Positions 6,640-25,779 of a stretch of DNA of 32,000 bases are shown in pieces (position 1 is the first letter of the stretch; every line of letters begins with the position of its first letter). The position numbers and the translations under genes are program-made. The notes under the pieces are model-generated. The model was not told the origin of the DNA. It saw nothing but the letters and a program-made list of their open reading frames with translations, and ran no database searches. This DNA is from Candidatus Scalindua sp. (GTDB lineage: Bacteria; Planctomycetota; Brocadiia; Brocadiales; Scalinduaceae). Location: contig JALDRA010000001.1 of assembly GCA_031316235.1 (NCBI GenBank), positions 450,001-482,000 on the forward strand. Reading direction: 5' to 3'.

Positions 6640-6694
6640 CATTAACGGTTGTTCATCCAGACTTCATCTTATCTTCATGTTTAATTGATATAAT
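6640..6694 (+). promoter_or_regulatory. Phased 4-hexamer module plus -10 box upstream of the two-component system (putative autoregulatory promoter)
   Basis: H1 6640 CATTAA, H2 6651 GTTCAT, H3 6662 CTTCAT, H4 6673 CTTCAT, a 10-nt spacer, then a perfect TATAAT at 6689-6694. It lies about 105 nt upstream of ATG 6800. Confidence 0.55.
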
Positions 6695-6799
6695 TGAGTC
6701 CATGATGTTTTTATCAGATAATCCTGATCGCGGATCTTGTCCACATCTTATCAAGGTTTTCGGACATTTGTGCCTCCGCATCAGAAAGGGATACATCAA

Positions 6800-7474
6800 A
6801 TGAAAATACTGATTGTCGAAGATGAAGTGAAATTGGCACGTTACCTGAAACAGGGTTTTGAAGAAAATTCTTTTGTAGTGGACCTTGCACATAATGGCAC
6901 TGATGGTTTACATCAGGCGGTACACGAAAGTTACGATATGATAATACTGGATATAATGCTTCCGCAGCATGATGGGATGGAAATACTTACTCGTATGCGC
7001 AGTGCCGGGATATATACCCCCGTAATCTTTCTCACCGCAAAGGATTCTATAGAAGACAAGGTAAATGGATTAAACAGCGGGGCTGATGATTATGTTATAA
7101 AACCTTTCTCTTTTCACGAATTATTAGCCCGTGTCCGCGTTTGTCTGCGAAGAGTATCAGACAAGAAAGAGGTAAAATTGAAGATAAACGGCTTGACACT
7201 TGACCCCATAGCACGAAAAGTATTTATGAAGGGTAAGAGGATAGACTTGTCACCAATTGAATTCTCCCTCCTCGAGTATATGATGCACCACTCAGGTCAG
7301 GTAGTAACACGAACAATGATTTCTGAGCATGTATGGGACTCCCATTTTGAGGGTTTCAGTAATGTTGTGGACGTACACATCGCCAAGTTAAGAGGTAAAA
7401 TAGACAAAAAACATCATAATAAACTCATACATACGGTAAGGGGAGTTGGCTATGTTCTCGAAGAACGCGACTAA
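6800..7474 (+). CDS. OmpR/PhoB-family response regulator (receiver plus winged-helix DNA-binding domain)
   Basis: MKILIVEDEVKLARYLKQ...MIILDIMLP... forms the receiver domain. The C-terminus ...VVDVHIAKLRGKID...IHTVRGVGYVLEE is a winged helix. ATG 6800 is preferred over the track start 6737, which would add 21 non-homologous residues. Confidence 0.9.
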   Translation: MKILIVEDEVKLARYLKQGFEENSFVVDLAHNGTDGLHQAVHESYDMIILDIMLPQHDGMEILTRMRSAGIYTPVIFLTAKDSIEDKVNGLNSGADDYVIKPFSFHELLARVRVCLRRVSDKKEVKLKINGLTLDPIARKVFMKGKRIDLSPIEFSLLEYMMHHSGQVVTRTMISEHVWDSHFEGFSNVVDVHIAKLRGKIDKKHHNKLIHTVRGVGYVLEERD

Positions 7475-8888
7475 ATTTTACCAATCAATCTGTTTTAAAA
7501 TTACGGTATGGTATTCAGTATCTATTTTCATAATATTGATTACAGCCGGAGGATTTCTGTATTTCCGATTAACGCATAAGCTGAATAAGGAAGTTAACCT
7601 TATACTCTTTGACGAAAGCGGAGAAGTATTGCAGGATATCATGGAGAAGAAATTCACACAGAACAGCTTAAAAGATGCGATAGAAATGGAAGCTTCTGAT
7701 GAGAAATACTTTAAGGTATCTGCAAGAGTGCTTGATATGGAACAGAACACCCTGATCACTTCAGCAAACTTTTTCGCACCAGACTTAAAGATTTCTGAAA
7801 GATCTATTGGAAATGCTGAAAAAGGTACGGTCACATTTGATACGATACGGGTTCAAGGCAGAGAATCTCCCTACCGCCTGATAACAAGGCCTGTATATCT
7901 TGACAACTCCCTGAAGTATCTCCTTCAGGTGGCTATCTACCTGAAGCCGACACAGAAAATAGTTGAAAATCTGGAAGAAAATTTCGCGATGCTGATACCT
8001 GTGCTCACGATAATCACCGTTCTTTGCGGATGGCTCATTGCAAAGCGGAGTTTAGCTCCCATCAAAGGCATAAACAAAATGACGCAAACAATAACGGCAT
8101 CTAATTTAAGTAAGAGGTTACACGCTACCCATACCGGGGATGAATTGGATACATTAACAGGCACCATTAACAATATGCTCGACAGGCTGGAGAATTCCTT
8201 TAAAAGAACAAGGCAGTTTTCCTCTGATGCGTCTCATGAACTCAGGACTCCCATTGCTTCCCTCAAAACCGGAATTGAAGTCACACTTTCAAAGAATAGA
8301 ACCACTGAAGAGTATTGTGTACTACTCATAAACAATTTAAGAGTATTAGAGAGGATGACCAGGCTGGTCAATGATTTATTAGAACTATCCAGAACAGATT
8401 CAGACGTTAACGTATTAGACATGAAATTGATCAATCTAGCCGATATCCTGAAGGATCAGCATGAGAAATTCATGCTGATATCGGAATCAAGGAACATAAA
8501 GATCCTCATGAACGAGGTACCAGACATGCATATCCTGGGGGATGAGGCTCTCTTGCGGCGTCTCTTCTGCAATCTGCTTGACAATGCCGTTAAATATACT
8601 TCCTCCGGAGACCATGTCACTATCTCTCTGGAAGAGAGAGGCAGAGAGATTTTCGTCCGTATTGAAGATACGGGTATCGGTATCCCTGAGACAGATCTTG
8701 AAAAGATTTTTGACCGTTTCTTCCGTGTCGACCCGTCACGTACCAGAGAAACTGGCGGGAGCGGTTTAGGACTGAGTATCTGCAAAAATATCGTAGCACT
8801 CCACAGAGGTACCATTGGAGTAGAAAGTAAAATAAACTCCGGTACTACGGTTACCGTACATCTTCCCAGAAATCACCCTCAATCCTGA
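7452..8888 (+). CDS. Sensor histidine kinase (2 TM, periplasmic domain, HAMP, HisKA, HATPase_c; CusS/PmrB-like class)
   Basis: The H-box is FSSDASHELRTPIASL; the N box is LLDNAVKYT; the G boxes are EDTGIGIP and GGSGLGLSI. Two hydrophobic segments flank a periplasmic region of about 130 aa. The track start 7446 is TTG; the first ATG is 7452. The gene overlaps the 3' end of the RR gene. Confidence 0.9.
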   Translation: MFSKNATKFYQSICFKITVWYSVSIFIILITAGGFLYFRLTHKLNKEVNLILFDESGEVLQDIMEKKFTQNSLKDAIEMEASDEKYFKVSARVLDMEQNTLITSANFFAPDLKISERSIGNAEKGTVTFDTIRVQGRESPYRLITRPVYLDNSLKYLLQVAIYLKPTQKIVENLEENFAMLIPVLTIITVLCGWLIAKRSLAPIKGINKMTQTITASNLSKRLHATHTGDELDTLTGTINNMLDRLENSFKRTRQFSSDASHELRTPIASLKTGIEVTLSKNRTTEEYCVLLINNLRVLERMTRLVNDLLELSRTDSDVNVLDMKLINLADILKDQHEKFMLISESRNIKILMNEVPDMHILGDEALLRRLFCNLLDNAVKYTSSGDHVTISLEERGREIFVRIEDTGIGIPETDLEKIFDRFFRVDPSRTRETGGSGLGLSICKNIVALHRGTIGVESKINSGTTVTVHLPRNHPQS

Positions 8889-9568: not shown

Positions 9569-11212
9569 ATGAATAAAAAGCTATTGTTCAGTTTATCTCT
9601 ACTATTTCTTCTCTTGTACATGGTACCGCTCAATGTACGCCCTGTTAACACACCGGACGAGACTCGATACGGAGAAATCTCCCGGGAAATGCTGATTACC
9701 GGAGACTTTATTGTTCCCCGGTTGAACGGGCTGAGATATTTTGAAAAACCGGTCCTTGGATACTGGCTGAATGCCGCATCCATGGCTCTGTTCAGCGATA
9801 ATGGTTTTGCTGTTCGTTTCCCATCTGCTCTTGCGGTTGGGCTTACCGCCATGATAATATTTTTACTTGTTCGTCGCTTTCATGGATACGATAAAACCGC
9901 ATTGTTGTCCGCCTTCATCTATATAACATTTATTGTTGTATACGGTGTTGGCACCTTATGCGTGATGGACAGCCTGCTGACTTTTTTCCTGACCGCAGCG
10001 ATGGGCTGTTTTTTTGTTGCCAGCACCAACACGACTGTGAGGAATCGAAACGTGTGGTTATTGCTCTGCGGGGTTTTCTGCGGTGCGGCTTTTCTGACAA
10101 AAGGTTTCCTCGCATTTGCCCTGCTGACGTTGACGGTGATTCCATTCCTGTTGTGGAATAGACGCGGAAGGGATATGTTCACCCTATTGTGGCTTCCTCT
10201 CCTCGCCGCCGTGGCTGTTTCGCTTCCCTGGTGCCTGATGATTGCCTCGCGTGAGCCAGATTTCTGGCGCTATTTTTTCTGGAACGAACATGTACAGCGC
10301 TTTCTCTCGGCAGACTCCAGCATGCATGCTCAGCCGTTCTGGTCCTTGATTCCGGTCTTCCTTGCCGGTGCGTTTCCCTGGATACTGGTCACTCCCATGG
10401 CTATTAGCCAATATAAACGTGAACTTCTCCGTAAACCGCTGATTCGTTTCTCTCTCTGCTGGATGGCTTTTTCGCTGGTGTTCTTTTCGGCTTCTTCAGG
10501 CAAACTAATTGCATATATTCTACCCTGTTTTCCTCCACTGGCAGTGCTTATTGCAATTGGTCTTACCGAATATTTCCGGAGTGGCAGCAAAAGAATGTTC
10601 CACTATTGTACCGTTTTGTCGATTATCATAACGGGCCTGATGGTTACTGCATTGCTTCTCATCGCGTTTACGCCTGCTCTGCACTGGAGGATTTACGGCA
10701 CAGAAGAGGGGCATAAACTGTGGTATTGCGTCTTCGGGGCGGTGTTGTGCCTTGTGATTATGATTAAGACTGTGCGGACACAGGACAGGCTGTGGAAAAC
10801 GGCTACACATGGACTCTCAGCCACCGCCATAATGCTGGTATTTCCTTTCGCTGTGCCGGTAGATAATTTTACCCATGCTGGAATGACAACTTTTCTGGAT
10901 TCTCAGAAAGATCACATAACTACGGATACATTCCTGATATCGGATTACCGAACAGTGCAGGCTGTCTGTTATACTTATAAACGTAAAGACGCCTATCTTT
11001 TTCTCAACAGCGGTGAACTCAGTTACGGGGTGTCCTATCCGGACAGCTCCTGCCGTTCCATCGATACTACCGGCCTGAAAAACCTTCTGCACGAGCGCAA
11101 CCGCCAGGTAGCAATTATCATAAAGGAAACCACGAAGTTAAGAGCCAATCTACCCTGGCCAGAGCCAATATATCAAACTATCTGGAAAGACTACTGGTTT
11201 GCGATATACTAA
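9569..11212 (+). CDS. arnT: Undecaprenyl-phosphate-L-Ara4N:lipid A 4-amino-4-deoxy-L-arabinosyltransferase (ArnT, GT-C/GT83)
   Basis: 547-aa polytopic protein, colinear with E. coli ArnT as I recall it: PDETRYGEISREML (Ec PDETRYAEISREML), LRYFEKPVLGYW (Ec LRYFEKPIAGYW), REPDFWRYFFWNEHVQRF (Ec REPNFWHYFFWVEHIQRF), GELSYGVSYPD (Ec GELKYGLNYPD). Confidence 0.9.
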   Translation: MNKKLLFSLSLLFLLLYMVPLNVRPVNTPDETRYGEISREMLITGDFIVPRLNGLRYFEKPVLGYWLNAASMALFSDNGFAVRFPSALAVGLTAMIIFLLVRRFHGYDKTALLSAFIYITFIVVYGVGTLCVMDSLLTFFLTAAMGCFFVASTNTTVRNRNVWLLLCGVFCGAAFLTKGFLAFALLTLTVIPFLLWNRRGRDMFTLLWLPLLAAVAVSLPWCLMIASREPDFWRYFFWNEHVQRFLSADSSMHAQPFWSLIPVFLAGAFPWILVTPMAISQYKRELLRKPLIRFSLCWMAFSLVFFSASSGKLIAYILPCFPPLAVLIAIGLTEYFRSGSKRMFHYCTVLSIIITGLMVTALLLIAFTPALHWRIYGTEEGHKLWYCVFGAVLCLVIMIKTVRTQDRLWKTATHGLSATAIMLVFPFAVPVDNFTHAGMTTFLDSQKDHITTDTFLISDYRTVQAVCYTYKRKDAYLFLNSGELSYGVSYPDSSCRSIDTTGLKNLLHERNRQVAIIIKETTKLRANLPWPEPIYQTIWKDYWFAIY

Positions 11213-11347: not shown

Positions 11348-11402
11348 CATTACTATTTTTTAATCTATTCTTCATTATGACTTAATGTTTGTTTGTTATA
11401 AT
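11348..11402 (+). promoter_or_regulatory. Phased 4-hexamer module plus -10 box upstream of the cmoA-like gene
   Basis: H1 11348 CATTAC, H2 11359 TTTAAT, H3 11370 CTTCAT, H4 11381 CTTAAT, a 10-nt spacer, then a perfect TATAAT at 11397-11402. It lies about 68 nt upstream of ATG 11470. Confidence 0.55.
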
Positions 11403-12216: not shown

Positions 12217-12558
12217 TATGTCTGCTACCCAACCTGGACAGGCCAGAACTAAACAGGAGTTAATAAATAACAAATTTCAAATCACAAACTACAAACAAAT
12301 TCCAATATATGAAATAATATACTAACTTGTTTGTTTTAAAAATAGTTCTTGAGATTTTCTTAATATAAAGAGAAACGTTTTTGGCAGACTGGATTTGTTT
12401 GTGCTTCTAAATCATATTGTTTGGACATTTTGAACTTAATTAATTGGAATTTGTTTGTTATTTGGATTTTATTATTTGGTGCTTGTTAGACGTTCTAAAG
12501 AATTTGTTTTAATAATTTTTTTGACAAAATTGGTTAAAATATTCTTATTAAGAGACTA

Positions 12559-13335
12559 ATGAAGAGCATGAGTGAAATTAAAATACCCTACGGTACAGGC
12601 TTTTTCAGAAAGTCTATGATAAATACCGGCAACATTCTGTTTCGATATAGAAATACGATGTTTTTCATGGTTGGAATCATATTGTTCATCAGCACAAAAC
12701 CAGAATTTATCTTTGAGAGTACGTTTTATGACAATTGTATGGATGTTGCCGGCTTTGCCGTAGCTGTAACCGGACAGATATTGAGGGCTTTGGTGATAGG
12801 CAAAGACTACATCAAAAGAGGAGGAAAAGATAATAAGATGATGGCGAACCGGTTAGTGCAGGGAGGCCTCTTTGCCCATTCCCGTAATCCCCTCTACTTT
12901 GGGAATATCTTGATTATCATTGGCCTGGGTATCATCTATAATTCAGTCTTGGGATATATTACTTCGTATAGTTTCTTCGTCTTTGGATATTTGGCCATTG
13001 TTATGGCTGAGGAAGATTTTCTGAGAACAAAGTTTGGTGTGGAGTACGAGGAATATTGTAAGAGGGTGCCCAGATTTATTCCACGATTTGCCGGAATCAG
13101 AAATACACTGAGTAATGGAGGTTTCGACTGGTTACGTTTCCTAAGGAAGGAATACAACATGATTTGCATATGGGTCGGTAGCGCTATCATTTTAAGGATA
13201 TGGGCAGAGATTCTCCATTTCGGATACGCCGCCAGGAAAAGGGACATATTGGTCATGTCTATATGCCTTATTCCGATTTTAATTTTTTACTGTGTAACAC
13301 GTTATTTGAAAAAAAATAAAAAACTTTCCACGTAG
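12559..13335 (+). CDS. ICMT/PEMT-family integral-membrane methyltransferase (Ste14/LmtA-like)
   Basis: 258-aa protein with multiple TM segments. It carries the family signature LVQGGLFAHSRNPLYFGNILIIIGL followed by AEEDFLRTKFGVEYEEYCKRVPRFIP. Confidence 0.75.
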   Translation: MKSMSEIKIPYGTGFFRKSMINTGNILFRYRNTMFFMVGIILFISTKPEFIFESTFYDNCMDVAGFAVAVTGQILRALVIGKDYIKRGGKDNKMMANRLVQGGLFAHSRNPLYFGNILIIIGLGIIYNSVLGYITSYSFFVFGYLAIVMAEEDFLRTKFGVEYEEYCKRVPRFIPRFAGIRNTLSNGGFDWLRFLRKEYNMICIWVGSAIILRIWAEILHFGYAARKRDILVMSICLIPILIFYCVTRYLKKNKKLST

Positions 13336-13483: not shown

Positions 13484-14449
13484 ATGAAACAATACAAAAA
13501 ACTCCTGCTCTTATTTTTAACTATAATAATTCTTAGTTGTATTCTTGCTCCTCTCGTAAAAATACCTCTGGATTTTATGTTAGAAAAAGGAGAATTTTTT
13601 GCAGATAGTGTGGACTATGAAAATGGCACATATGATTTTGGCAAGGTAATGAGGCGACTATTAATGCTCGCTGCATTGATAGTGTTTGTGATTTTAAGAA
13701 AGTCTCTGAAAATTTACCCCCTAATGGCTTTAGGCATGAAGCAGAGGTCTGGATGTTTCAGGAAATTTCTTTTTGGCTTCCTAATGGCCATAATTTCGCT
13801 GCTAATTTACTACTCTCTTGCACTGTTTTTCGGTGCATGGATAGTTCACATAGATTATCATTTAGTTGGAATTGTAATATCTAAAATTATCAAATATCTT
13901 TTAGTCGGCTGTCTTATAGGTCTCATTGAAGAGATATTTTTTAGAGGTTTTGTCTTGCAATTCTTTATGAAGGACATGTCCGTAGCAATTGCCGTATGTG
14001 CAACCAGCGCGATTTACTCTGTTCTTCACTTTTTCCAGTCTGAAGTTCTTGTTACCAGAGGGTTTCAGCCATTTGTCGGTTTAATCACTATGTCACATTT
14101 TTTTAAACCTCTTTTTCTTCAATTCATAGAAAACCTGTCTTCAATCATTGGCCTTTTTTTGGTTGGTGTGGTGCTTTCTTATGCATTTCTTCTATCAAAA
14201 TCATTATACCTTTCTATAGGCTTGCACTCAGGATGGGTATTCATGATGAAGGCTGACAGCCTCTTCCTTGTTCGGGTTCGAGAGAAGTATGAGTGGGTTT
14301 TTGGTAATAGTAATCAGTTAGTGACAGGTTTTATTGTATGGGCTTCTCTGATATACGTCTTGTTTATAATAAAGAAGGTTTATCGTAATACTCATAATTC
14401 CGGAGCATATCTCAAATCATCCGATTCAGGCCAGAATTCTTTCAGATGA
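13484..14449 (+). CDS. CPBP-family intramembrane glutamic endopeptidase (CAAX protease / Abi family)
   Basis: 321-aa polytopic protein. Motif 1 is LIEEIFFRGF (EExxxR), motif 2 is SAIYSVLHFF (FxxxH) and motif 3 is IGLHSGWVF (H-containing helix). Confidence 0.75.
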   Translation: MKQYKKLLLLFLTIIILSCILAPLVKIPLDFMLEKGEFFADSVDYENGTYDFGKVMRRLLMLAALIVFVILRKSLKIYPLMALGMKQRSGCFRKFLFGFLMAIISLLIYYSLALFFGAWIVHIDYHLVGIVISKIIKYLLVGCLIGLIEEIFFRGFVLQFFMKDMSVAIAVCATSAIYSVLHFFQSEVLVTRGFQPFVGLITMSHFFKPLFLQFIENLSSIIGLFLVGVVLSYAFLLSKSLYLSIGLHSGWVFMMKADSLFLVRVREKYEWVFGNSNQLVTGFIVWASLIYVLFIIKKVYRNTHNSGAYLKSSDSGQNSFR

Positions 14450-14517: not shown

Positions 14518-14572
14518 CATTAACATTTCCTCATCTCCCATTCATCATAACTTAATTTTTAATTGGTATAGT
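14518..14572 (+). promoter_or_regulatory. Phased 4-hexamer module plus -10 box upstream of GT-C paralogue 2
   Basis: H1 14518 CATTAA, H2 14529 CCTCAT, H3 14540 ATTCAT, H4 14551 CTTAAT, a 10-nt spacer, then TATAGT at 14567-14572. It lies about 44 nt upstream of ATG 14616. Confidence 0.55.
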
Positions 14573-14615: not shown

Positions 14616-16406
14616 ATGGCAAAACTTCAATCTATCTGTCCTGACAAGCGAAGCAGAGATCTTGTTATTCTGTTCGTAGGTGGTTTACTCGTGTATTTTA
14701 TGAACATTGGTTCCCTTCCGTTATCTCATTCCGAAGACCGTTGGGGTGAGATTGCAAGGGAAATGGAGCTTTCAAATAATTGGTATACCCCGACGATAAA
14801 TGGAGAAATTTATTGGGACAAACCAATCTTATCTTATTGGGCGATCCTTGGCGTTAAAAAGATCATCGGGAGTCCTCAGCTCAGCGAATGGATAATTCGT
14901 TTTCCGACTCTTCTGGCCAGCTTCCTCATTCCATTCCTTATGTATGATCTTACCTCTTTTTTCTTTAACCGCAAGATTGGTCTAACCGGCGCTTTGATAA
15001 TCTTAACATCCTTTCAAATGTATCAGATTGGACGTGTGGCATCCTCGGACATGTTGAACCTGCTACTTTTTCTGACATCACTTTGGATCTATTTTAAGAC
15101 CGTTCAGAAAAACCGTGGTTTCTGGTGGTGGTTGCTGCTGGGCTTTATTATAGGAGTCAATTGCCATATCAAAGGGTTGATTGGAGTGCTTCCGTATCTG
15201 GTTATCTTGAGTCACAGGATTTTCAGCCATGGTTTCAAATCTCTCTCCCGGGAATTCTTATTCCGTTTTTCTCTAAGTACCTTCCTGGCAGGGACTATTT
15301 ATCTGGGTATGTGGTGCTGGATACTTGGAGATGTAATCAATACAATAAGCGGAATATATACCTATCTGATCTCTGGTTCGGCGGATGCTCTACCTTTACC
15401 GTTACGCATGGTTATACAGGAAAATCTAAACAGAGTTGCTACTGATTCAATAGACCATAAGAATCCTCCATGGATTTATCTGGAAGCGCCCTTCTCTTTT
15501 CTATTTCCCTGGTCTCTCTTTTTACCGGGTGCATTGGTCACATGGTGGCGGGACAGAAAAATGACAAAGGATAAAAAAGAACCATTCGGGATCTGGTTTT
15601 TTTCTCTCCTCATCTTTTTCTCCTTAATGTCTTCAAGAAGGCCGTATTATCTTTTACCGGCCATACCAGCTGCTGCGGTTCTTATTGCCGTGCATATCCA
15701 TCTGCTGATTAAATGTGATGAAACCAGCGGCATATCCGGCAACTTAAGAAAAAGAAGTGTGTTCATATACGGACTTTTACTGACATGTCTGGTTTTCACT
15801 ATGGGAGCCTTGCTTATTTTTGTTTCCGGTTCTGTTCCTGAGAGACTCAATTCTGTCTATTTGTATCCGTCGGGCATAGCTTCTTTTGTTATTGGAGGAA
15901 CGCTTTTGGTTGTTGCCGTAAAGAAGAGTTTTTCTACGGTAATTAATACCTTCACCGTTTTTTTAATTCTTCTTATTATTGTCGTAAACTTAAGTCTTCC
16001 GGATATCGGAAATAATTCTACTTTCAGAGAATTTACGAAAATAGTGAATGAGAAAACTTTAAACAAAAGAGTTGTTCTTTTTCTAGTAGATAACGCCAAA
16101 CTTATATACGGACTGGAGCATCCACCTTATCCATGTGTTCCTTCTGAGGTAAATGCATCTCCGGAAGAGTCAGTGAGACAACTTGTCGAAGAAACTGCTC
16201 CTGGTGATTTTGTTTTGTTAGAAAAGAGAAACCTTTCCCTTCTTTCAAGATTGAATTATGAACTCATACTTGAGGAACTACCCAATCCCTCCTACCTGAA
16301 GATGGAATGGAAAAACGGACCAAAAATTATTCCCAACGAAAACCATATCAAGAAGAAAACATTACTCTTATTACGTATTCTTAACCATGACTCCCAAAAG
16401 AAATAG
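14616..16406 (+). CDS. ArnT/PMT-family GT-C glycosyltransferase (paralogue 2, acceptor unknown)
   Basis: 596-aa polytopic protein. The first periplasmic loop, HSEDRWGEIAREMELSNNWYTP...IYWDKPILSYW, reproduces the ArnT/PMT_2 D-E-x-R...E-I-x-R-E and [FW][ED]KP motifs. It has a soluble C-terminal domain of about 130 aa. Confidence 0.8.
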   Translation: MAKLQSICPDKRSRDLVILFVGGLLVYFMNIGSLPLSHSEDRWGEIAREMELSNNWYTPTINGEIYWDKPILSYWAILGVKKIIGSPQLSEWIIRFPTLLASFLIPFLMYDLTSFFFNRKIGLTGALIILTSFQMYQIGRVASSDMLNLLLFLTSLWIYFKTVQKNRGFWWWLLLGFIIGVNCHIKGLIGVLPYLVILSHRIFSHGFKSLSREFLFRFSLSTFLAGTIYLGMWCWILGDVINTISGIYTYLISGSADALPLPLRMVIQENLNRVATDSIDHKNPPWIYLEAPFSFLFPWSLFLPGALVTWWRDRKMTKDKKEPFGIWFFSLLIFFSLMSSRRPYYLLPAIPAAAVLIAVHIHLLIKCDETSGISGNLRKRSVFIYGLLLTCLVFTMGALLIFVSGSVPERLNSVYLYPSGIASFVIGGTLLVVAVKKSFSTVINTFTVFLILLIIVVNLSLPDIGNNSTFREFTKIVNEKTLNKRVVLFLVDNAKLIYGLEHPPYPCVPSEVNASPEESVRQLVEETAPGDFVLLEKRNLSLLSRLNYELILEELPNPSYLKMEWKNGPKIIPNENHIKKKTLLLLRILNHDSQKK

Positions 16407-16682: not shown

Positions 16683-16738
16683 CATTAATACAATTTAATT
16701 ACACTATCATCTTCTCTTAATGTTGCTTTTGATAGACT
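16683..16738 (+). promoter_or_regulatory. Phased 4-hexamer module plus -10 box upstream of GT-C paralogue 3
   Basis: H1 16683 CATTAA, H2 16694 TTTAAT, H3 16705 TATCAT, H4 16716 CTTAAT, an 11-nt spacer, then TAGACT at 16733-16738. Confidence 0.5.
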
Positions 16739-16825
16739 CGGAAAATTCATTTTCAGAATTATTGAAAATAGTACCTTCGAGTAATGATATCTTCTTACCT
16801 TCTCAAAGGAGTCAGGGAAAATAGT

Positions 16826-18523
16826 ATGAAACGTGTGCTGAAAATTACTGTCACATTGCTCCATTCCCGATACTGGTTAGTGTTAATGCTCCTAGCCGTG
16901 TCCTTTGTGGGGATATTTGACCATGACCTCTGGACATCCGATGAACCCCGTGTTGCTGAAATCGGGAGAGAATTTCTTGACGATGACGCTTCTCTCGCTG
17001 TACCGACGCTTGGCAGAGAGCCATTTCTGGAAAAGCCACCTCTCTATTTCTGGTGCGTGGCCCTCTCTTACAAGACCTTTGGAGGCCCATCGGCCAGTGC
17101 CGCCAGAATCCCTTCTGTATTCTTCGGACTTGGGACTCTTCTCTTTACCTATCTCCTTGCCAGGAAAATGTATGGCAGAAACAGTGCTCTCTGGTCATGT
17201 ATGGTCCTTGCCTTAAGCACTGAATACTTTACTATTACGCATAAATCACTCGTGGATATCTCTCTTGTATTTTTTGTGACAGGGACCGTTTACTGGCTCT
17301 ATCTGGCACTGACTGAGAAGAAAGATAAAAAAATGATCTATTATGCCCTGTGCTATCTCTTCGCCACCGGTGCTTTTTTTACGAAGGGATTTCTGGGCCT
17401 TGCGCTCCCAGCCCTGGTTTTTATCTGTTCGATAGCATGGACAAGGCAATGGAGTGAGCTAAAAAAAGCCAGGCTCTGGATGGGTTTCCTTATTGTTGGT
17501 GCTGGAATCAGCCTCTGGCTTTCTGACCTCTGGAAGGAAGGTTCCTGGGAATATATCAGTACATTCCTGGTGCATAACAACCTGCAGCGTTTTATGCCCG
17601 GGACGGGATATTCCGGGGGGCACGAAAAGCCATTTTATTACTACATGTGTGTGTATTGGAGTGCGTTTGCACCGTGGAGTGTATTGACACCCGCCATACT
17701 CCTCTATATCTGCCGTAAAGGGTTCCAGGAGAAGCAGATACTCTTTCCTGTTTTGTGGTTTCTCTCAGGCTTCCTCCTGCTCTCACTTGCCGAGACAAAG
17801 CGCTCTATCTATATTGTACCTCTTTTACCCCCCATTTCGATACTTACGGGTGCATGGTTCAGTGATTTGGAGACCCGCAGGGCTGAAGGCCGGTTAGATA
17901 GAGCCGGCCAGTGGTGTATCATCGGTATCTCTGTCATGTGCGTTGTTTTATTTCCCGTATTGGCTTTTAAGTACGACTTGTATAAGAGTGTTACGTTTAT
18001 TGTATTCATGCCCGTAATTCTCATTGGTTCTATCGCTCCCATTCACTCATTTATCAGGTGCAGGGTTATTAAGCTATATGGATTACCCATACTTTTGAGC
18101 ATGCTGTATCTCTCTTTTGTACTGGTTTCCTATCCATACATTAATAAGCACAAATCAATGAAACCTTTTTGTGATACCCTGGGCAGACTACAGGCAGTAA
18201 AAGGAAAAACTATCTATGCCTTCTGCCCCGATGAGACCACAGAGGCGGTAATACCATTCTATACCGGTAATTATGTCACACCGATCTGGGAGCTGGAGGA
18301 GATGAAAGCTGTTGGAAGAGAGAGAGATGCACTGGTCCTTGTTGTAGACAAACACGAGAACAGACCTCTCTATAACAGTCTCAGTGAACTGTTTTGCAAC
18401 ACCATCGTTTCAGGACAGACAGGAAGAAGGCGTATGGTGCTGCTCAGTAATTTCAGTACATTAAACCATGAAGAGGAGCACTACACCTCCATATTCGGGA
18501 ACATGAATAAAGGAACCAATTAA
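16826..18523 (+). CDS. ArnT/PMT-family GT-C glycosyltransferase (paralogue 3, tandem pair member)
   Basis: The track ORF starts at ATG 16784. ATG 16826 (MKRVLKITVTLLHSRYWLVLMLLAVSFVGIFDHDLW) aligns with the N-terminus of the downstream paralogue. Motifs are SDEPRVAEIGREF and PFLEKPPLYFW. The protein is polytopic with a soluble C-terminal domain. Confidence 0.8.
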   Translation: MKRVLKITVTLLHSRYWLVLMLLAVSFVGIFDHDLWTSDEPRVAEIGREFLDDDASLAVPTLGREPFLEKPPLYFWCVALSYKTFGGPSASAARIPSVFFGLGTLLFTYLLARKMYGRNSALWSCMVLALSTEYFTITHKSLVDISLVFFVTGTVYWLYLALTEKKDKKMIYYALCYLFATGAFFTKGFLGLALPALVFICSIAWTRQWSELKKARLWMGFLIVGAGISLWLSDLWKEGSWEYISTFLVHNNLQRFMPGTGYSGGHEKPFYYYMCVYWSAFAPWSVLTPAILLYICRKGFQEKQILFPVLWFLSGFLLLSLAETKRSIYIVPLLPPISILTGAWFSDLETRRAEGRLDRAGQWCIIGISVMCVVLFPVLAFKYDLYKSVTFIVFMPVILIGSIAPIHSFIRCRVIKLYGLPILLSMLYLSFVLVSYPYINKHKSMKPFCDTLGRLQAVKGKTIYAFCPDETTEAVIPFYTGNYVTPIWELEEMKAVGRERDALVLVVDKHENRPLYNSLSELFCNTIVSGQTGRRRMVLLSNFSTLNHEEEHYTSIFGNMNKGTN

Positions 18524-18524
18524 C

Positions 18525-18602
18525 CATTAACATATCTTAATCTTTCCTTCATAATTTATTAACCTTTGCTTCACCATTTCTTAATGCTTGACTTTATATA
18601 CT
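18525..18602 (+). promoter_or_regulatory. Extended phased hexamer array plus -10 box upstream of GT-C paralogue 4
   Basis: 18525 CATTAA, 18536 CTTAAT, 18547 CTTCAT, (18558 ATTAAC), 18569 CTTCAC, 18580 CTTAAT, all on an 11-bp register. The -10 box is TATATA at 18595-18600 or TATACT at 18597-18602. The array starts 2 bp after the stop of the upstream paralogue. Confidence 0.5.
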
Positions 18603-18722: not shown

Positions 18723-20351
18723 ATGAACAAGTTAGCATTCAAATTTCCCGATTCTCAATACTGGATTGCCACCCTGATCCTCGCCGTGTCTTGTGTGGGG
18801 ATATTTGGCCATGATCTCTGGCCATCAGATGAGCCACGTGTTGCTGAAATCGGGAGGGAGTTCCTTGATGACGGTGCATCTCTGGCTGTACCACGGCTTG
18901 GCGGAGAACCATTTCTGGAAAAACCTCCTCTCTATTTCTGGTGCGTGGCCCTCTCTTATAAGGCATTTGGCGGTCACTCGGCAGGCGCAGCGAGACTCCC
19001 CTCGCTATTTTTCAGTATTGGAACTCTTCTCTTTACCTATCTCCTTGCCGGAAGGATGTATGGCAGAAACAGTGCTCTCTGGTCCTGTGTGATCCTTGTC
19101 TTAAGCCTTGAGTTTTTTTCAATTGCCCATAAATCGCTTGTTGATTCTTCTCTCGTCTTTTTCGTAACCGGAACTATTTACTGGCTTCATTCAGCCTTAA
19201 CCGCGGAGAATGATAAAAAGGGAGTTTTTTATACTCTCTCCTATATCTTTGGGACCGGGGCATTTTATTCTAAAGGGTTTCTTGGCCTTGCATTTCCAGC
19301 CATGCTGTTTATCTGCTGGATTGTGTTGACAAGAGATTGGAGTGAGATAAAAAGAGCCAGACTCTGGAGCGGAATCCTTATCGTTTGTGCCGGAATCGGT
19401 ATCTGGTTTTTTGCCCTCTGGAAAGAAGGTTCCTGGGAATATATCATTACATTTCTCGGACATAACAACCTGCAGCGTGTTCTCCCCGGGGCAACCTATA
19501 CAGGTGGGCATGAACACCCTTCTTACTATTACCTGGTTCGCTATTGGCGTGCGTTTGCACCATGGAGTATATTGACGCCGGCCGTAATTTATCATGTCTA
19601 TCGTAAGGGGTCCCGGGATAAAAACAGTCTCTTTCTTGTTCTGTGGTTTGCCTCCGGTTTCCTTATGCTCTCGCTTGCCGGAACCAAACGGCCTCTCTAT
19701 CTTGTCCCTCTTTTTCCCGCCCTTTCGATACTTACGGGTGCATGGTTTAACGATGTGGAAACACGCGTAACTCAGGGAAGATTAGTCAGCATAAGCCAAT
19801 GGTCTGTTATGTGTATTTCCTTTATCAGTATTGCTACAGCAGCTATTGCTGCTTTTAAGTACGACCTGCACAAGAGTGTTGCGTTTATTGTATTGATGCC
19901 CGTAATTCTCATCTCTTTTATCGCTCTCTTTCACTCTTTTATTACGCATAAGTGTATTAAATTATCTGGATTATCCATAGTGATGATGCCGATTTATCTA
20001 TCGTTTGTGCTGGTTTCCTATCCATATCTAAACGAAAACAGAAGCCTCAAGCCTTTCTGTAATGAGTTAGGTCAAATAGCTGCAATAAAAGAACAACCCC
20101 TTTATGCCTTCCAGCCGGGTGAGATTGAAAGGGCTATGGTACCCTTCTATACCGGATATTATATTACACCAATACAGAGTTTAGTTGAGATGAAATCCAT
20201 GGCCGGAAGCAAAGATGTGCTTGTCCTTGTATTGGATGAGCGTAACAGCAGGCCTTTATATAACAGCCTCAAGGATATATTTCCAGATGTTCTCGTTTCA
20301 GGACAATCTGGCAAAAGACATATGGTACTCATGACTAATAAAGGAAAATAA
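18723..20351 (+). CDS. ArnT/PMT-family GT-C glycosyltransferase (paralogue 4, tandem pair member)
   Basis: 542 aa, colinear with 16826-18523 and by eye roughly two-thirds identical. It has the same SDEPRVAEIGREF and PFLEKPPLYFW motifs. Its stop lies 3 nt before the arnB start. Confidence 0.8.
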   Translation: MNKLAFKFPDSQYWIATLILAVSCVGIFGHDLWPSDEPRVAEIGREFLDDGASLAVPRLGGEPFLEKPPLYFWCVALSYKAFGGHSAGAARLPSLFFSIGTLLFTYLLAGRMYGRNSALWSCVILVLSLEFFSIAHKSLVDSSLVFFVTGTIYWLHSALTAENDKKGVFYTLSYIFGTGAFYSKGFLGLAFPAMLFICWIVLTRDWSEIKRARLWSGILIVCAGIGIWFFALWKEGSWEYIITFLGHNNLQRVLPGATYTGGHEHPSYYYLVRYWRAFAPWSILTPAVIYHVYRKGSRDKNSLFLVLWFASGFLMLSLAGTKRPLYLVPLFPALSILTGAWFNDVETRVTQGRLVSISQWSVMCISFISIATAAIAAFKYDLHKSVAFIVLMPVILISFIALFHSFITHKCIKLSGLSIVMMPIYLSFVLVSYPYLNENRSLKPFCNELGQIAAIKEQPLYAFQPGEIERAMVPFYTGYYITPIQSLVEMKSMAGSKDVLVLVLDERNSRPLYNSLKDIFPDVLVSGQSGKRHMVLMTNKGK

Positions 20352-20354
20352 CAT

Positions 20355-21521
20355 ATGACCAGAAATAGTTTTCTCCCATTTTCAAGACCAGACATCGGCC
20401 AGGCAGAGATTAACGAAGTTGTCAGGGTTCTCTCCTCCGGATGGATAACCTCCGGCCCAAAAGCAGCATCCTTTGAGAAGGCATTTGCAGAATATGTCGG
20501 CTGCCCCTACGCATTGGCCCTGACCTCCTGCACTGCAGGCCTCCATCTGGCGATGGAAATAGTCGATCTGCAGCCTGGTGATGAAGTAATCACTACCTCT
20601 CTCACCTGGCCGGCAACCGTAAATATGATTCACCTGTGTGGAGGGAGACCGGTATTTGTTGATGTGGAACGGGAGACCTTCAATCTCGATGTGTCACAGG
20701 TTGAAAAAGCCGTTACGAAACGGACAAGGGCAATCCTCCCGGTTCACTTTGCCGGTCAGGCTTGTGAACTTGAAAAACTCAGGGAGATTTGTAAAGGTCA
20801 CGGTATCGTGTTAATCGAAGATGCTGCCCATGCCATTGGCAGTGAGTACAAGGGAAAGCGAATTGGTTCCGGGGACAATATGGCAGTTTTCAGCTTTCAC
20901 CCTATCAAGAACATGACTACCGGAGAAGGCGGCATGATCACAACACACGACGAAGAGACCTATGAAAGGCTTCGTCTCTTACGGTTCCACGGAGTTGATA
21001 AAGACGCATGGAAGCGGTATGGCAGCGCCGAAAAGGAAGGCTATGATCTGATAATTCCGGGGTGGAAGTACAATATGACCGACATTCAGGCTGCGCTGGG
21101 TCTCGTTCAATTGGAGCGCCTGGATACAATGATCGAAAAGCGCATGACGCTGGCCTCGCTGTATGATGATCTGCTCATGGAAGTAGAAGGGATAACACGT
21201 CCCCGCAGGGTCCTCTACGATATAAGACACTCCTGGCACCTCTATACGATACTGGTGGACAAGGAGAAAGCAGGGATATCACGTGATGAATTCATGCAGG
21301 AGATGAAGAAACGGAACATAGGAACTGGTATTCATTTTCTTGCCGTTCACCAGTTATCGTTTTACCGAAAGCATTATCCCTTACCTGACGGTTCGCTGCC
21401 GGAAACCGTATTTATATCAGAAAGAGTCGTTTCCCTTCCACTCTATTCCGGTATGAATGAAAGTGATGTACACGACGTAGTTGCAGCAATCAGGGATATA
21501 ATTGAGAAATTCGGAAAATGA
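20355..21521 (+). CDS. arnB: UDP-4-amino-4-deoxy-L-arabinose--oxoglutarate aminotransferase (DegT/DnrJ/EryC1 family)
   Basis: 388 aa. SFLPFSRPDIGQAEINEVVRVLSSGWITSGPK matches E. coli ArnB [32 protein letters not shown] as recalled. VFSFHPIKNMTTGEGG contains the PLP-lysine motif. Confidence 0.9.
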   Translation: MTRNSFLPFSRPDIGQAEINEVVRVLSSGWITSGPKAASFEKAFAEYVGCPYALALTSCTAGLHLAMEIVDLQPGDEVITTSLTWPATVNMIHLCGGRPVFVDVERETFNLDVSQVEKAVTKRTRAILPVHFAGQACELEKLREICKGHGIVLIEDAAHAIGSEYKGKRIGSGDNMAVFSFHPIKNMTTGEGGMITTHDEETYERLRLLRFHGVDKDAWKRYGSAEKEGYDLIIPGWKYNMTDIQAALGLVQLERLDTMIEKRMTLASLYDDLLMEVEGITRPRRVLYDIRHSWHLYTILVDKEKAGISRDEFMQEMKKRNIGTGIHFLAVHQLSFYRKHYPLPDGSLPETVFISERVVSLPLYSGMNESDVHDVVAAIRDIIEKFGK

Positions 21522-21525
21522 GTAT

Positions 21526-21666
21526 GTATCCTCATCTCATAATGGTTTTCGGATAAAATCCGAGATAAAATTGAGCGAGTAAGGCCCTCGGCGTTTTTTG
21601 TCCGGGGATACCTTCACCAGGATTTGGTTTCCGGTAAAACCGAAAACCAAATCGGTTTTAGTATAT
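21526..21666 (+). repeat. MITE-like intergenic repeat, copy B (carries a ~27-bp internal insertion)
   Basis: It aligns with copy C and with the reverse complement of copy A. The left end is degenerate (GTATCCT versus ATATACT). An extra segment, AGGCCCTCGGCGTTTTTTGTCCGGGGA, sits between GAGCGAGTA and TACCTTCACC. The copy lies in the 274-bp gap between arnB and arnC. Confidence 0.8.
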
Positions 21667-21801
21667 GATGTTTTAAGAGATATCCCATTGCCGGTAAACG
21701 GTAATTACCTGAATATCTGCGCATTGAGGTTGAGAGGATGAGATCAGTTTTACTATGTTCATGGCAGATGTTTGCTTTCGGGAAAGGAATGAGCGTTGTT
21801 A

Positions 21802-22758
21802 ATGGAAAATAAAATACCTTATCTTTCAGTAGTGGTACCTGTATTTAATGAGGAAAAGAATATCAGGGAACTTGCAGAACGTCTGAATATGGCCTTGAAG
21901 GATGTGGGACGTCTTTATGAAATACTATTCATCGATGATGGAAGTTCTGATAATTCACTCAAAATCCTCAAGCACTGCCAGACTGAGATTCCCGGCATAA
22001 CGATAATAGAATTCAACCGGAATTATGGGCAGCATGCCGCTATTTTTGCCGGATTTGAAAAAAGTTCAGGAGAGATAGTTGTAACGCTGGATGCCGATCT
22101 TCAAAATCCTCCGGAAGAGATCCCGAAACTTTTAAACAAGGCGGAGGAGGGATTCGAAGTCGTTGCAACTGTGCGTACAAATCGTAAAGATTCAATTTTC
22201 AGAAGGGGTGCCTCTTATGTAATAAACAGGATCACGGCAAAAATTACCGGTGTCAATCTTAAGGATTACGGCTGTATGTTACGGGCATATAGAAGAAACA
22301 TAGTTCAACTGATGTGCGAATCAAAGGAAATCTCAACTTTTATTCCCGTCCTCGCCACATCATATGCCAAGAATACGACCGAAATCGAGGTGAAACATGA
22401 TCCGCGTCGCGGTGATGAGACAAAATACAGCCTTACCCGTCTTATCTCGCTCCAATTTGATCTCATGACCAGTTTCTCAATCTGGCCGCTGAGGATGCTC
22501 ATGCTTGTTGGACTCGTGGTTTCACTGGCAGGAGTTGGTTTCGGTGTTTTCCTCCTCGCGGTAAGAATAATTATGGGAAGTGAATGGGCAGCCGAGGGTG
22601 TTTTTACCCTCTTTGCCGTACTCTTTTTCTTCGTGGGCGGGCAGTTTCTCGCCTTTGGCCTTCTCGGAGAATACATTGGAAGAATCTACTCCGAGGTGAG
22701 GAGAAGACCGAGGTTTGTAATCGAGAATGTACACACAAAGGAGAAAAATAAGGAATGA
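21802..22758 (+). CDS. arnC: Undecaprenyl-phosphate 4-deoxy-4-formamido-L-arabinose transferase (GT2)
   Basis: LSVVVPVFNEE..YEILFIDDGSSDNS..NRNYGQHAAIFAGF..TLDADLQNPPEEIPKLL..DYGCMLRAYRR..WAAEGVFTLFAVLFFFVGGQF..GEYIGRIYSEVRRRPRF is colinear with E. coli ArnC as recalled. The track start 21796 is TTG; the first ATG is 21802. Confidence 0.9.
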   Translation: MENKIPYLSVVVPVFNEEKNIRELAERLNMALKDVGRLYEILFIDDGSSDNSLKILKHCQTEIPGITIIEFNRNYGQHAAIFAGFEKSSGEIVVTLDADLQNPPEEIPKLLNKAEEGFEVVATVRTNRKDSIFRRGASYVINRITAKITGVNLKDYGCMLRAYRRNIVQLMCESKEISTFIPVLATSYAKNTTEIEVKHDPRRGDETKYSLTRLISLQFDLMTSFSIWPLRMLMLVGLVVSLAGVGFGVFLLAVRIIMGSEWAAEGVFTLFAVLFFFVGGQFLAFGLLGEYIGRIYSEVRRRPRFVIENVHTKEKNKE

Positions 22759-23678
22759 GGATCATTGTAATGGGGTATCACGCTATTGGATGCCGATGTC
22801 TTAAATATCTCATAGAGGAGAAAGAGCATATAGTGGCAATCTTCACTCACAAAGATAATCCCGGTGAGAACCTGTTCTTTGATTCGATGACTGAACTCGC
22901 CCGATTGCATGGTATCCCCTGCTACATGCCGGAACATATCAATACCCATGAGTGGATATCACTGATAGAAGGGCTTTCTCCCGACGTCATATTCTCGTTT
23001 TACTACCGTAATTTAGTTTCTCGGCAAATCCTTGATATCCCGAGGCTCGGAGCCATAAATCTCCACGGTTCACTTCTCCCAGAATACAGGGGGCGCTGCC
23101 CCGTTAACTGGGTGCTGGTAAATGGAGAGAAAGAGACAGGGGTTACCCTTCATTATATGGTGGAAAAAGCTGATGCCGGTGACATCATTGCACAAAGGAA
23201 AATTCCTGTTTTATTCGATGATACCGCCTATAGTCTTTACAAAAAAACGGAGAAGGAGGCCGTAACAATTCTTGATGAAACATTGCCACTGATAAAAAAG
23301 GGAAAAAACAACAGGATACCGCAGGATCTGTCACGCGGTACGTATTTCGGAGGAAGAAAACCTGATGACGGAAGGATACACTGGGAAAGGAAGAATTCTG
23401 AAATCTATAACCTTGTAAGGGCGGTAACCCACCCCTGGCCGGGTGCCTTCTGCTTTTTCAGAGAGAAGAAGGTCTTTATCTGGCAATGTCTGCCTTTATC
23501 TGTCAATGGTCATCACAAACCTGGTAATTTGATCTCTTTTGATAAGGAGGGAATAATTGCAGCTGCCGGCAAAGGGACACTATTATTGAAAAGATGTCAG
23601 ATAGAGGGAGAAGAAGAAAAAAGCGGTTATGAATTTGCCCAGACATATGTTCTCCGTGAAGGAGAAATGTTTACTTAG
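22755..23678 (+). CDS. arnA: UDP-L-Ara4N formyltransferase (stand-alone homologue of the ArnA N-terminal domain)
   Basis: 307 aa. [46 protein letters not shown] matches E. coli ArnA [46 protein letters not shown] as recalled. The start overlaps the arnC stop (ATGA at 22755-22758). Confidence 0.85.
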   Translation: [307 protein letters not shown]

Positions 23679-23713
23679 TGTCGGGAAGATAACTGTCCAT
23701 CTACTGCGTTATG

Positions 23714-23769
23714 GTAATAATTCCGTAATCCTCACGTACTTGAGTACGTTCCGGTTACACAATTATTAC
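23714..23769. other. 56-nt imperfect nested hairpin in the spacer between the two arnA halves
   Basis: GTAATAATT (23714-23722) pairs with AATTATTAC (23761-23769). GTAA (23725-23728) pairs with TTAC (23755-23758). ACGTAC (23734-23739) pairs with GTACGT (23744-23749) around a TTGA loop. Confidence 0.5.
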
Positions 23770-23848
23770 ACGCCTTGTCCCTGGGCAGTTCTCGTCCAAA
23801 CACCGGGTTTCTATTCAAGCACTACTTAGCATTTAAAAGGAGAAAAAA

Positions 23849-24901
23849 ATGAAGATTCTTATTTTAGGCGTAAACGGTTTTATTGGACATAGTCTTGTCA
23901 ATCGGATTTTAGAATTAACTGACTGGAAAGTATTTGGCATGGATCTGTCATCTTCGAAGCTGACAGATTCAATACACAATTCACGATTCCACTTTATTGA
24001 AGGTGATATCTCTATCCACAGGGAGTGGGTTGAGTATCACATCAAAAAGTGCGATGTGATTCTTCCCCTTGTAGCCATTGCAACACCTGCTCATTATGTT
24101 AAAGAACCGCTTCGGGTTTTTGAGCTTGGTTTTGAAGAAAACCTCCGCATCGTTCGCCTGTGTGTGAAATACGGCAAAAGAATCCTGTTTCCATCGACTT
24201 CTGAAGTATATGGTATGTGTGACGAACCAGAATTTTCGGAGGAGACGAGCAACTTTGTACTTGGCCCCATAAAGAAGCAGCGGTGGATTTACTCATGCGC
24301 AAAACAGCTTCTTGACAGAGTCATCTGGGCATACGGGTCTGAAGGAAGGCTGGATTTTACCCTTTTCAGGCCCTTCAACTGGATAGGCCCAAGGCTTGAT
24401 GACATCGATGCCGCCAAAGAAGGCAGTTCCAGGGTAGTAACACAGTTCATTATAAATATTGTGATGAACGAGCCGCTCAGACTGGTTGATGGGGGAATGC
24501 AGAAAAGATGCTTTACGTATATAGATGACGGGATAGATTGCTTAATGAAGATTATTGAAAACAGAAATAGCGTGTGCAGCGGAGAGATTTTCAACATCGG
24601 TAACCCGAATAACGATTGCAGTATGAGGGAGCTTGCTGAGAGACTGCTTGATTTGTACAGGAAACATCCTGAAACAGAGGCGTATGCAAGTACCTCTCGA
24701 ATCCTTAACGTAAATTCGAATGAGTACTATGGTGAGGGATACCAGGATATCGTTGCAAGGAAACCCTCGATAAAAAAGGCTCAGGAGCTCTTAGGATGGG
24801 AACCTCAGATAAACCTGGACAAAGCTCTTGAAAATACTCTTGATTTCTTTATCGAGGAAAGCAAGGTAAATGGTTTGATATGCGCATCTACAGCCATTTA
24901 A
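23849..24901 (+). CDS. arnA: UDP-glucuronate oxidative decarboxylase (stand-alone homologue of the ArnA C-terminal SDR domain)
   Basis: 350 aa. MKILILGVNGFIGHSLVNRILE is the Rossmann GxxGxxG motif (Ec ArnA RVLILGVNGFIGNHL). The catalytic YSCAKQ (YxxxK) is present. An AAAGGAG RBS precedes ATG 23849. Confidence 0.85.
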   Translation: MKILILGVNGFIGHSLVNRILELTDWKVFGMDLSSSKLTDSIHNSRFHFIEGDISIHREWVEYHIKKCDVILPLVAIATPAHYVKEPLRVFELGFEENLRIVRLCVKYGKRILFPSTSEVYGMCDEPEFSEETSNFVLGPIKKQRWIYSCAKQLLDRVIWAYGSEGRLDFTLFRPFNWIGPRLDDIDAAKEGSSRVVTQFIINIVMNEPLRLVDGGMQKRCFTYIDDGIDCLMKIIENRNSVCSGEIFNIGNPNNDCSMRELAERLLDLYRKHPETEAYASTSRILNVNSNEYYGEGYQDIVARKPSIKKAQELLGWEPQINLDKALENTLDFFIEESKVNGLICASTAI

Positions 24902-25779
24902 TATCACTAAAAATTGATGTGGACACTTATCGTGGCATGGAAAAGGGTGTTCCTGTGCTCCTGGATATTCTCCGAAGCCATGATATAAAGGCATCCTTCT
25001 TTCTCTCGTTTGGTCCTGATAACTCTGGAAAAGCGATATGGAACATATTTCGAAAGAAGGGGTTTCTCTCAAAGATGGTGAGGACCGGTGCCCCCCGCCT
25101 CTATGGCCTGAAGACGATGCTTTACGGGACACTGCTTTCCGCCCCCCTTATAGCTTCTGCATTTCCGGATCTTACGAGGCAGATAGCTGAAGAGGGGCAC
25201 GAAATAGGCATCCATGCCTGGGATCACAGGCTATGGCAGGACAACCTCGATAAGCTCTCAGAAAGAAAGATCAGTGAAGAATTCGAAAAGTCATTCAGTT
25301 CATTCAAAAATATCCTGGGAATTACCCCGAAAGCAACCGCAGCGCCTGCCTGGTCCTGCAATTCCCGGAGTCTTAAGATCCAGGATTCATTAGGTCTCGA
25401 TTACTCAAGCGATACAAGAGGAGTATTGCCTTTCTATCCACGTTGTAATGGCCAGGTATTTAAGACACTCCAGATACCAACAAACCAGCCATGTATTGAG
25501 GAATTGATTGGCCTTGATTTTGTAAATAGTGACAATCTGGTTGAATACCAGGTTTCCCTCCTGAAACAATACATACAGAATGTGATTACAATTCACGCGG
25601 AAGTGGAGGGTGGAATATATAAAGAACAATTTGACCAATTTGTCAGAAAAACAATTTGCAAAGGTTACCGGTTCTGCCCTTTGAATTCAATTGCTGCAGA
25701 CTTTCATGGTGCCCCGGCAAGGAGCCTAGAGCACGGTCATCTTCCAGGAAGGAGCGGGAGAGTGGCAATTTCCTCCTGA
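24880..25779 (+). CDS. arnD: 4-deoxy-4-formamido-L-arabinose-phosphoundecaprenol deformylase (polysaccharide deacetylase fold)
   Basis: 299 aa. LKIDVDTYRGMEKGVPVLLDILRSHDIKASFFLSFGPDN matches E. coli ArnD [39 protein letters not shown] as recalled. ...ITIHAEVEGG... matches Ec YTIHAEVEG. It overlaps the preceding gene by 22 nt. Confidence 0.85.
   Translation: MRIYSHLISLKIDVDTYRGMEKGVPVLLDILRSHDIKASFFLSFGPDNSGKAIWNIFRKKGFLSKMVRTGAPRLYGLKTMLYGTLLSAPLIASAFPDLTRQIAEEGHEIGIHAWDHRLWQDNLDKLSERKISEEFEKSFSSFKNILGITPKATAAPAWSCNSRSLKIQDSLGLDYSSDTRGVLPFYPRCNGQVFKTLQIPTNQPCIEELIGLDFVNSDNLVEYQVSLLKQYIQNVITIHAEVEGGIYKEQFDQFVRKTICKGYRFCPLNSIAADFHGAPARSLEHGHLPGRSGRVAISS

Follow-up and report, generated by a model that had tools for sequence, protein, structure and literature searches.

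The window analyzed here, a stretch of 32,000 nucleotides from Candidatus Scalindua sp., encodes at positions 12559..13335 (+) an ICMT-fold, LmtA-related integral membrane transferase of 258 aa with about six transmembrane (TM) helices. On balance, we favor its being a carboxymethyltransferase that depends on carboxy-S-adenosyl-L-methionine (Cx-SAM) and modifies a lipid of the envelope on the cytoplasmic side of the membrane. The coupling of this gene to cmoA is near-obligate and occurs without CmoB, which argues for carboxymethyl rather than methyl transfer; the methyl transfer proposed in a preliminary description of the locus is therefore held to be less likely. The specificity of the transferase for Cx-SAM as a donor is read from gene linkage alone, and the carboxymethyl-transfer step from the gene coupling together with the absence of CmoB.

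An integral membrane enzyme of the ICMT/PEMT superfamily

The open frame of 258 aa at 12559-13335 (+) is intact. A total of 155 homologues of the transferase were found in the database, and at least 582 stretches of species-representative genomes encode a relative; consequently, the ORF has not arisen by chance but is a conserved gene. Its close homologues belong to Candidatus Scalindua and the Scalinduaceae, and it is the sole PF04191/LmtA-related gene of its genome. The ICMT/PEMT signature reported in the preliminary description was borne out: both of the motifs quoted there were recovered (residues 107-116 read HSRNPLYFGN, and residues 151-175 read EEDFLRTKFGVEYEEYCKRVPRFIP), the Pfam model for PEMT (PF04191) gives 40.1 bits against a cut-off of 25, which places the protein within the superfamily, and the predicted fold is of the ICMT type. 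The conserved positions are RGG (87-89), HSRNPLY (107-113), EE (151-152), W191, and E198. Judged from its sequence, the transferase is confirmed as a real membrane enzyme of the ICMT/PEMT superfamily.

The AlphaFold2 model of the transferase, built on 25 relatives, reached a pLDDT of 86.8 and a pTM of 0.83, and about six helices were obtained by both hydropathy and the model. The top Foldseek matches of this model in the PDB (8xku_G, 4a2n, 5v7p, and sterol reductases) belong to the ICMT superfamily, with E-values of just 0.035-0.3, and since these values are weak, the result is taken merely as a fold check. The family profile matched 5vg9, 5v7p, and 4a2n in the PDB at E-values of ~1e-10 to 1e-11, over the core only, with beetle ICMT and Methanosarcina ICMT among the structures matched. 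The transferase shares with ICMT/Ste14 (4a2n, 5v7p) and PEMT the cofactor-binding core (residues ~97-176) and a membrane-embedded active site oriented towards the cytoplasm, but it differs from them in its extra N- and C-terminal helices and in having no conserved prenyl-protein context. The protein also falls outside NF040696, the family of protein-S-isoprenylcysteine O-methyltransferases, with 38.3 bits against a cut-off of 160 and a match restricted to the C-terminal core. Basic residues of the transferase cluster in both terminal tails, in the 82-112 loop, and in the 150-198 segment, and because of this clustering, all of the loops bearing conserved motifs are predicted to lie on the cytoplasmic side.

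Coupling to CmoA across diderm phyla

Directly upstream of the transferase gene lies the only cmoA gene of the genome (11470..12216, +), which encodes a carboxy-S-adenosyl-L-methionine synthase of 248 aa that scores 244.6 bits to TIGR00740 against a cut-off of 193.3. The protein aligns end to end and over its full length with E. coli CmoA (4gek, E 1e-49), and its R198, which is conserved in at least 90% of the partners, aligns with the arginine of the QKR motif of the E. coli enzyme. The two genes are separated by an AT-rich spacer of 342 bp (12217..12558, +), in which no copy of the promoter module described below, no terminator-like site, and no Rfam match were found, whereas in Brocadia-type loci cmoA and the transferase gene overlap by 4 bp. 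The 342-bp gap counts against the Cx-SAM reading. A complex prediction for CmoA and the transferase gave a score of 0.00, to which we attach weight neither for nor against.

The neighborhood survey covered the best 80 of at least 582 loci in species-representative genomes, 79 of which were evaluable. These loci came from Planctomycetota, Acidobacteriota, Gemmatimonadota, Bacteroidota, Verrucomicrobiota, Nitrospirota, Eisenbacteria, Krumholzibacteria, Binatota, Myxococcota, and Pseudomonadota. CmoA is encoded directly upstream and on the same strand in 74 of the 79 loci (73 complete copies and one cut copy), which span more than 10 diderm phyla, and the gap between cmoA and the transferase gene is -168 to +20 bp in most of the surveyed loci. 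Approximately the CmoA equivalog cut-off is reached by 70 of these 74 partners. Furthermore, blind all-against-all clustering of the ORFs within 6 kb returned CmoA and the ICMT-like protein as the only recurrent families in the surveyed loci. The next-largest clusters (26 loci each) overlie the ICMT-like and CmoA genes on the opposite strand and for this reason are read as antisense ORFs. The next real cluster is a chorismate mutase-DAHP synthase fusion (CM_2-DAHP synthase) that flanks the pair in seven loci (L018, L020, L029, L039, L042, L070, and L092); at L039, the fusion is immediately next to the ICMT-like gene, in a genome in which CmoA was not found at all. Prephenate, the product of chorismate mutase, is the co-substrate of CmoA (PMC10491745).

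For five of the 79 homologues, no CmoA gene adjoins the locus, and in four of these five cases none was seen elsewhere in the genome either; thus, some members of the family may use SAM. All five exceptions nest within the CmoA-linked family in the tree, a placement that suggests secondary separation or loss.

Within the Brocadiia, CmoA exceeds the cut-off in 15 of 81 genomes, and in all 15 it adjoins an orthologue of the transferase. The orthologue is missing from 65 of the 66 Brocadiia genomes that lack CmoA, and in the single remaining genome it sits at the first bases of a contig, where the sequence is cut. None of the six genomes searched (the genome of the window and five pair-bearing genomes from five lineages) yielded a CmoB over the cut-off; in the genome of the window, the CmoB model TIGR00452 reached at most 37.5 bits (cut-off, 275), and this at other loci. 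For the transferase itself, no homology to CmoB (TIGR00452) was found, and its fold differs; the carboxylate site of CmoB is formed by Lys91/Tyr200/Arg315. Since the co-occurrence is strict and no CmoB was found as a tRNA partner, the transferase is the only consistent candidate for the user of Cx-SAM.

Irregular copies of the pair were also seen. One Brocadia-type genome carries two identical copies about 5 kb apart (G024:C29:6139-12656), and both in this genome and at G059:C34:1630681-1632189 the ICMT-like gene appears as two partial ORFs, which may reflect frameshifts or decay.

ICMT enzymes are carboxyl O-methyltransferases, and this chemistry would suit a transferase that acts one step later, in the SAM-dependent methyl-esterification of a carboxyl group set by another enzyme. 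The tRNA pathway has a second step of this kind, in which CmoM follows CmoB (PMC12783734). However, the module contains no third conserved gene for the carboxymethyl transfer itself, and CmoB-like genes were not found, so that a later-step role appears improbable.

The users of Cx-SAM given in the cited literature are CmoB, TglF, MccB's C-terminal domain, and phage CmoX, all of which are soluble and act on RNA, peptide, nucleotide, or DNA (PMC10491745, PMC12783734, PMC4482062). The last three are precedents for a pairing of CmoA with a transferase other than CmoB (PMC10491745, PMC12783734). In the literature consulted, the products that receive their group from Cx-SAM are limited to tRNA, two natural products of peptide or nucleotide type, and phage DNA. 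The pair described here resembles the two-enzyme Cx-SAM cascades CmoA/CmoB, TglE/TglF, MccS/MccB C-terminal domain, and phage CmoA/CmoX, in that a bona fide CmoA stands beside a SAM-type transferase that is the sole plausible user of Cx-SAM. It differs from them in that the transferase is an integral membrane protein with the ICMT fold rather than a soluble Rossmann or C5-MTase enzyme, and in that the acceptor is presumably a membrane lipid instead of tRNA, peptide, or DNA. The transferase would thus work in the manner of the CmoB/TglF type without being a member of that family. In the literature searched, we found no publication linking CmoA with an ICMT-type enzyme or with a lipid, and the Cx-SAM literature since 2019 included none on a membrane or lipid transferase among the matches listed. 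The CmoA/ICMT-like pair would therefore constitute a two-enzyme Cx-SAM cascade on a known fold that is undescribed in the literature.

Relation to LmtA and to LmtA-like genes of sister genomes

The closest characterized family of the transferase is LmtA, the enzyme with which the preliminary description had compared it. The best curated match (NCBIfam) is LmtA_Leptospira (TIGR04571; 86.6 bits, E 2e-24), the model for the lipid A Kdo2 1-phosphate O-methyltransferase LmtA of Leptospira interrogans, and the alignment joins residues 22-256 of the transferase to positions 9-246 of the 252 in the model. The same model was the best curated match for all 10 of the 10 relatives tested (70-101 bits). 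The transferase has the full-length architecture of LmtA, made up of N-terminal helices, the ICMT core, and a C-terminal extension. Both proteins combine the ICMT fold with N-terminal helices and a C-terminal two-helix extension that are absent from ICMT, they have in common the EE motif as well as a conserved Glu within the KEY motif, and both stand in an envelope-lipid context. This family relation stands, but an assignment to LmtA itself does not, since the score of the transferase is about a quarter of the TIGR04571 cut-off of 325 bits and its motifs are RNPLY and RGG, not RHPLY and RTS[SG].

Closer LmtA-like genes occur in sister Brocadiales, in genomes from which both the pair and CmoA are missing. 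Their scores to TIGR04571 are 191-220 bits, namely 211-220 bits over the full length at L115, L116, and L119, and 191 bits, with a partial match, at L120. The motifs of the first three are IVRHPLY, as in ICMT, and RTSS or RTSG, and this RHPLY/RTS[SG] core of the nearest LmtA-like sequences is absent from the transferase, which has HSRNPLY and RGGK; the comparison uses these Brocadiales genes as proxies and not LmtA of Leptospira. In the CmoA-linked family, the loop reads RGG in 83 of 84 sequences and the core reads RNPxY in 84 of 84 (HxRNPxY in 78 of 84), and the transferase bears this signature of RGG and H-x-RNPxY. Because the loop and core motifs split cleanly, the transferase is a relative of LmtA and not its orthologue. 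In the tree, the LmtA-like proxies and other paralogues fall on very long branches in a basal polytomy, by which strict monophyly of the CmoA-linked family with respect to the LmtA-like genes was not established.

LmtA is a true SAM methyltransferase, and the transferase might likewise perform a SAM-dependent, LmtA-type O-methylation of a lipid A phosphate, in which case CmoA would either have no functional tie to it or serve tRNA. The full-length top match to LmtA_Leptospira, repeated in every relative tested, agrees with such a role, as do the position of the gene within an arn/GT-C locus and the four CmoA-less genomes that retain a member of the family. These points have to be set against the low score relative to the cut-off, the existence of closer LmtA-like genes that occur without CmoA and have RTS/RHP instead of RGG/RNP, and the finding that CmoA of the Brocadiia occurs only beside this gene while CmoB was not found. 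We consider methylation of the LmtA type to be unlikely. In addition to their motifs, the two kinds of enzyme would differ in partner and donor: the transferase is near-obligately paired with CmoA, in contrast to the LmtA-like genes seen here, and its predicted donor is Cx-SAM, whereas that of LmtA is SAM.

In another family of the Brocadiales, two of the LmtA-like genes, both from one genus (L115:4035-4778 and L116:3903-4628, 211-219 bits), lie between ArnT-like GT-C genes, and a methyl-type relative is what fills the similar GT-C neighborhood in these sister lineages. In these anammox relatives, both genes are candidates for encoding a genuine lipid A phosphate methylase. A class-I methyltransferase other than CmoA lies near the LmtA-like gene at both loci.

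The arn/GT-C locus and the acceptor

All genes from the RND operon to arnD lie on the same strand of the window. A CzcA-like RND efflux operon (834-6520, +) comes first, followed by a CopR/CzcR-type response regulator and a heavy-metal-type sensor kinase (6737..8888, +; 279.6 bits to TIGR01387 and 308.9 bits to TIGR01386, both over their cut-offs) and by ArnT, a homologue of the lipid IVA Ara4N transferase (9569..11212, +; 486 bits to NF009784 against a cut-off of 567, and 114.9 bits to PMT). Downstream of cmoA and the transferase gene are a CPBP/Rce1-like intramembrane protease (13484..14449, +), three ArnT-like GT-C paralogues (14616-16406, 16784-18523, and 18723-20351, +), and the Ara4N synthesis genes arnB, arnC, arnA-FT, arnA-DH, and arnD (20355..25779, +). 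The location between arnT and further transferases given in the preliminary description is thus correct. LpxC is present in the same genome. Between positions 12001 and 14000, in the stretch of the transferase and CPBP genes, the G+C content is 0.34-0.36, lower than in the arn and RND genes on either side (0.44-0.50).

A three-hexamer module (YTTMAT, in 11-bp phase) has eight matches in the window against 0.02 expected by shuffling. Its sites at 715-753, 6651-6689, 11359-11386, 14529-14556, 16694-16721, and 18536-18563 lie upstream of the RND operon, the two-component genes, cmoA, GT-C2, GT-C3, and GT-C4, respectively, with a copy before each of the three GT-C paralogues. The cmoA copy is a perfect match to the module, and the promoter region of this gene (11359..11402, +) comprises TTTAAT, CTTCAT, and CTTAAT in 11-bp phase and a TATAAT at 11397-11402. 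The phased module is probably the binding site of a CopR/CzcR-type regulator and would define one regulon, and the two-component system at 6737..8888 is presumed to regulate the promoters that bear it. Since the spacer between cmoA and the transferase gene contains neither the module nor a terminator-like site, it is plausible that the transferase gene is co-transcribed with cmoA in this regulon.

The anammox pair is embedded in two-component/GT-C/arnBCAD loci with several different gene orders (L003, L103, L104, L105, L106, L112, L113, L102, L017, and the window). Outside anammox bacteria, arn or GT-C genes were found near the pair in 4 of ~74 loci (GT-C within 10 kb at L025, L032, L041, and L054), and because the pair is so rarely near such genes there, lipid A as the acceptor is a hypothesis specific to the lineage. 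Accordingly, the role in lipid A modification that had been drawn from the position in the arn locus keeps its footing in the recurrent Ara4N/GT-C context of anammox bacteria, but it does not extend to the other phyla, where the conserved partner is CmoA and not arn. An AU test with the Scalindua-type and Brocadia-type sequences as one clade gave a p of 0.045, which is borderline and concerns a group chosen after the tree had been viewed; for both reasons, two independent insertions into arn loci are not claimed.

The immediate neighbors of the pair bear on two further explanations. In three anammox loci (L001, L017, and L102), an RND permease directly adjoins the pair; it may serve to export a modified lipid, or it may lie there by chance. 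This adjacency, the presence of a heavy-metal-type two-component system and a CzcA-like RND operon in the same putative regulon, and a weak match (16.9 bits) to MddA, a small-molecule methyltransferase of the same superfamily, would agree with a non-lipid acceptor, either small and hydrophobic or related to thiols or metals, that is modified from Cx-SAM or SAM in a detoxification linked to RND efflux and the metal-type sensor. However, the score to MddA is negligible, neither efflux nor metal genes accompany the pair recurrently across phyla, and the full-length architecture is common to LmtA, a lipid-modifying enzyme; such an acceptor seems to us quite unlikely.

The second explanation concerns the protease gene. 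The ICMT-like gene (12559-13335) adjoins the Rce1-like gene (13484-14449) in the window and also at L109, an arrangement reminiscent of a bacterial CAAX-like pair, in which a CPBP/Rce1-like protease would trim a lipidated protein and the ICMT-like enzyme would methylate the new C-terminus. Nevertheless, a CPBP gene is adjacent in only 2 of ~94 loci, the window and L109, both from the Scalinduaceae, and is no part of the conserved module, whose partner is CmoA; neither prenylation machinery nor a CAAX substrate was seen. The CAAX-type reading is highly improbable and was rejected because the CPBP adjacency is confined to the Scalinduaceae. At L109, the pair itself is split by ~1.7 kb.

Returning to the Cx-SAM-dependent carboxymethylation that we favor, the upstream CmoA would, to judge from its family membership, convert SAM and prephenate into Cx-SAM in the cytoplasm. 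Acting second in the two-gene module with CmoA, the transferase would then pass on the carboxymethyl group (+58 Da), the target being a nucleophile in the head group of an inner-leaflet lipid of the cytoplasmic membrane. In the Scalindua-type genome, the module would probably be transcribed from the cmoA promoter, and since this promoter shares the phased module, the modification would join a sensor-controlled remodeling of the envelope with Ara4N.

Regarding the acceptor, we tentatively suggest, by analogy, the phosphate of lipid A before flipping, which would yield a carboxymethyl-phosphate diester. A bulk phospholipid or polyprenyl phosphate is about as likely, and because the module is free-standing in most phyla, a ubiquitous lipid (PE, PG, or polyprenyl phosphate) fits equally well. 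In anammox bacteria, lipid A is plausibly favored by the homology to LmtA and the arn/GT-C context. A carboxymethyl phosphate would keep the negative charge of lipid A undiminished, a poor fit with the usual logic of Ara4N.

It is an evenly balanced question whether the pair represents an undescribed class of Cx-SAM enzyme, in which an ICMT-fold protein would carboxymethylate an envelope lipid, and which in anammox bacteria would act on lipid A, in a metal-/envelope-stress regulon with Ara4N, to give a carboxymethyl-phosphate (phosphoglycolate-type) or N-carboxymethyl head group. If true, these would be head groups never reported in bacterial membranes, and a membrane-embedded user of Cx-SAM in more than 10 diderm phyla would mean both a new lipid modification and a new donor for the envelope. 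Such an enzyme would also explain why CmoA is kept by many bacteria without the cmo5U machinery. For anammox bacteria, the prediction is a regulated envelope modification beside Ara4N, with an adduct of +58 Da rather than +14 Da.

Two minor arrangements were observed around the pair. In Brocadia-type loci (L003:6110-7124 and L004:5960-6989), an ArnC-like GT2 gene and a small gene for LAB_N, the lipid A biosynthesis N-terminal domain, precede cmoA, which hints at an envelope-lipid context. In a small group of three loci that includes L090 (10695-11354), the CmoA-linked gene is followed directly by another member of PF04191 (PEMT family), which looks like a tandem paralogue.
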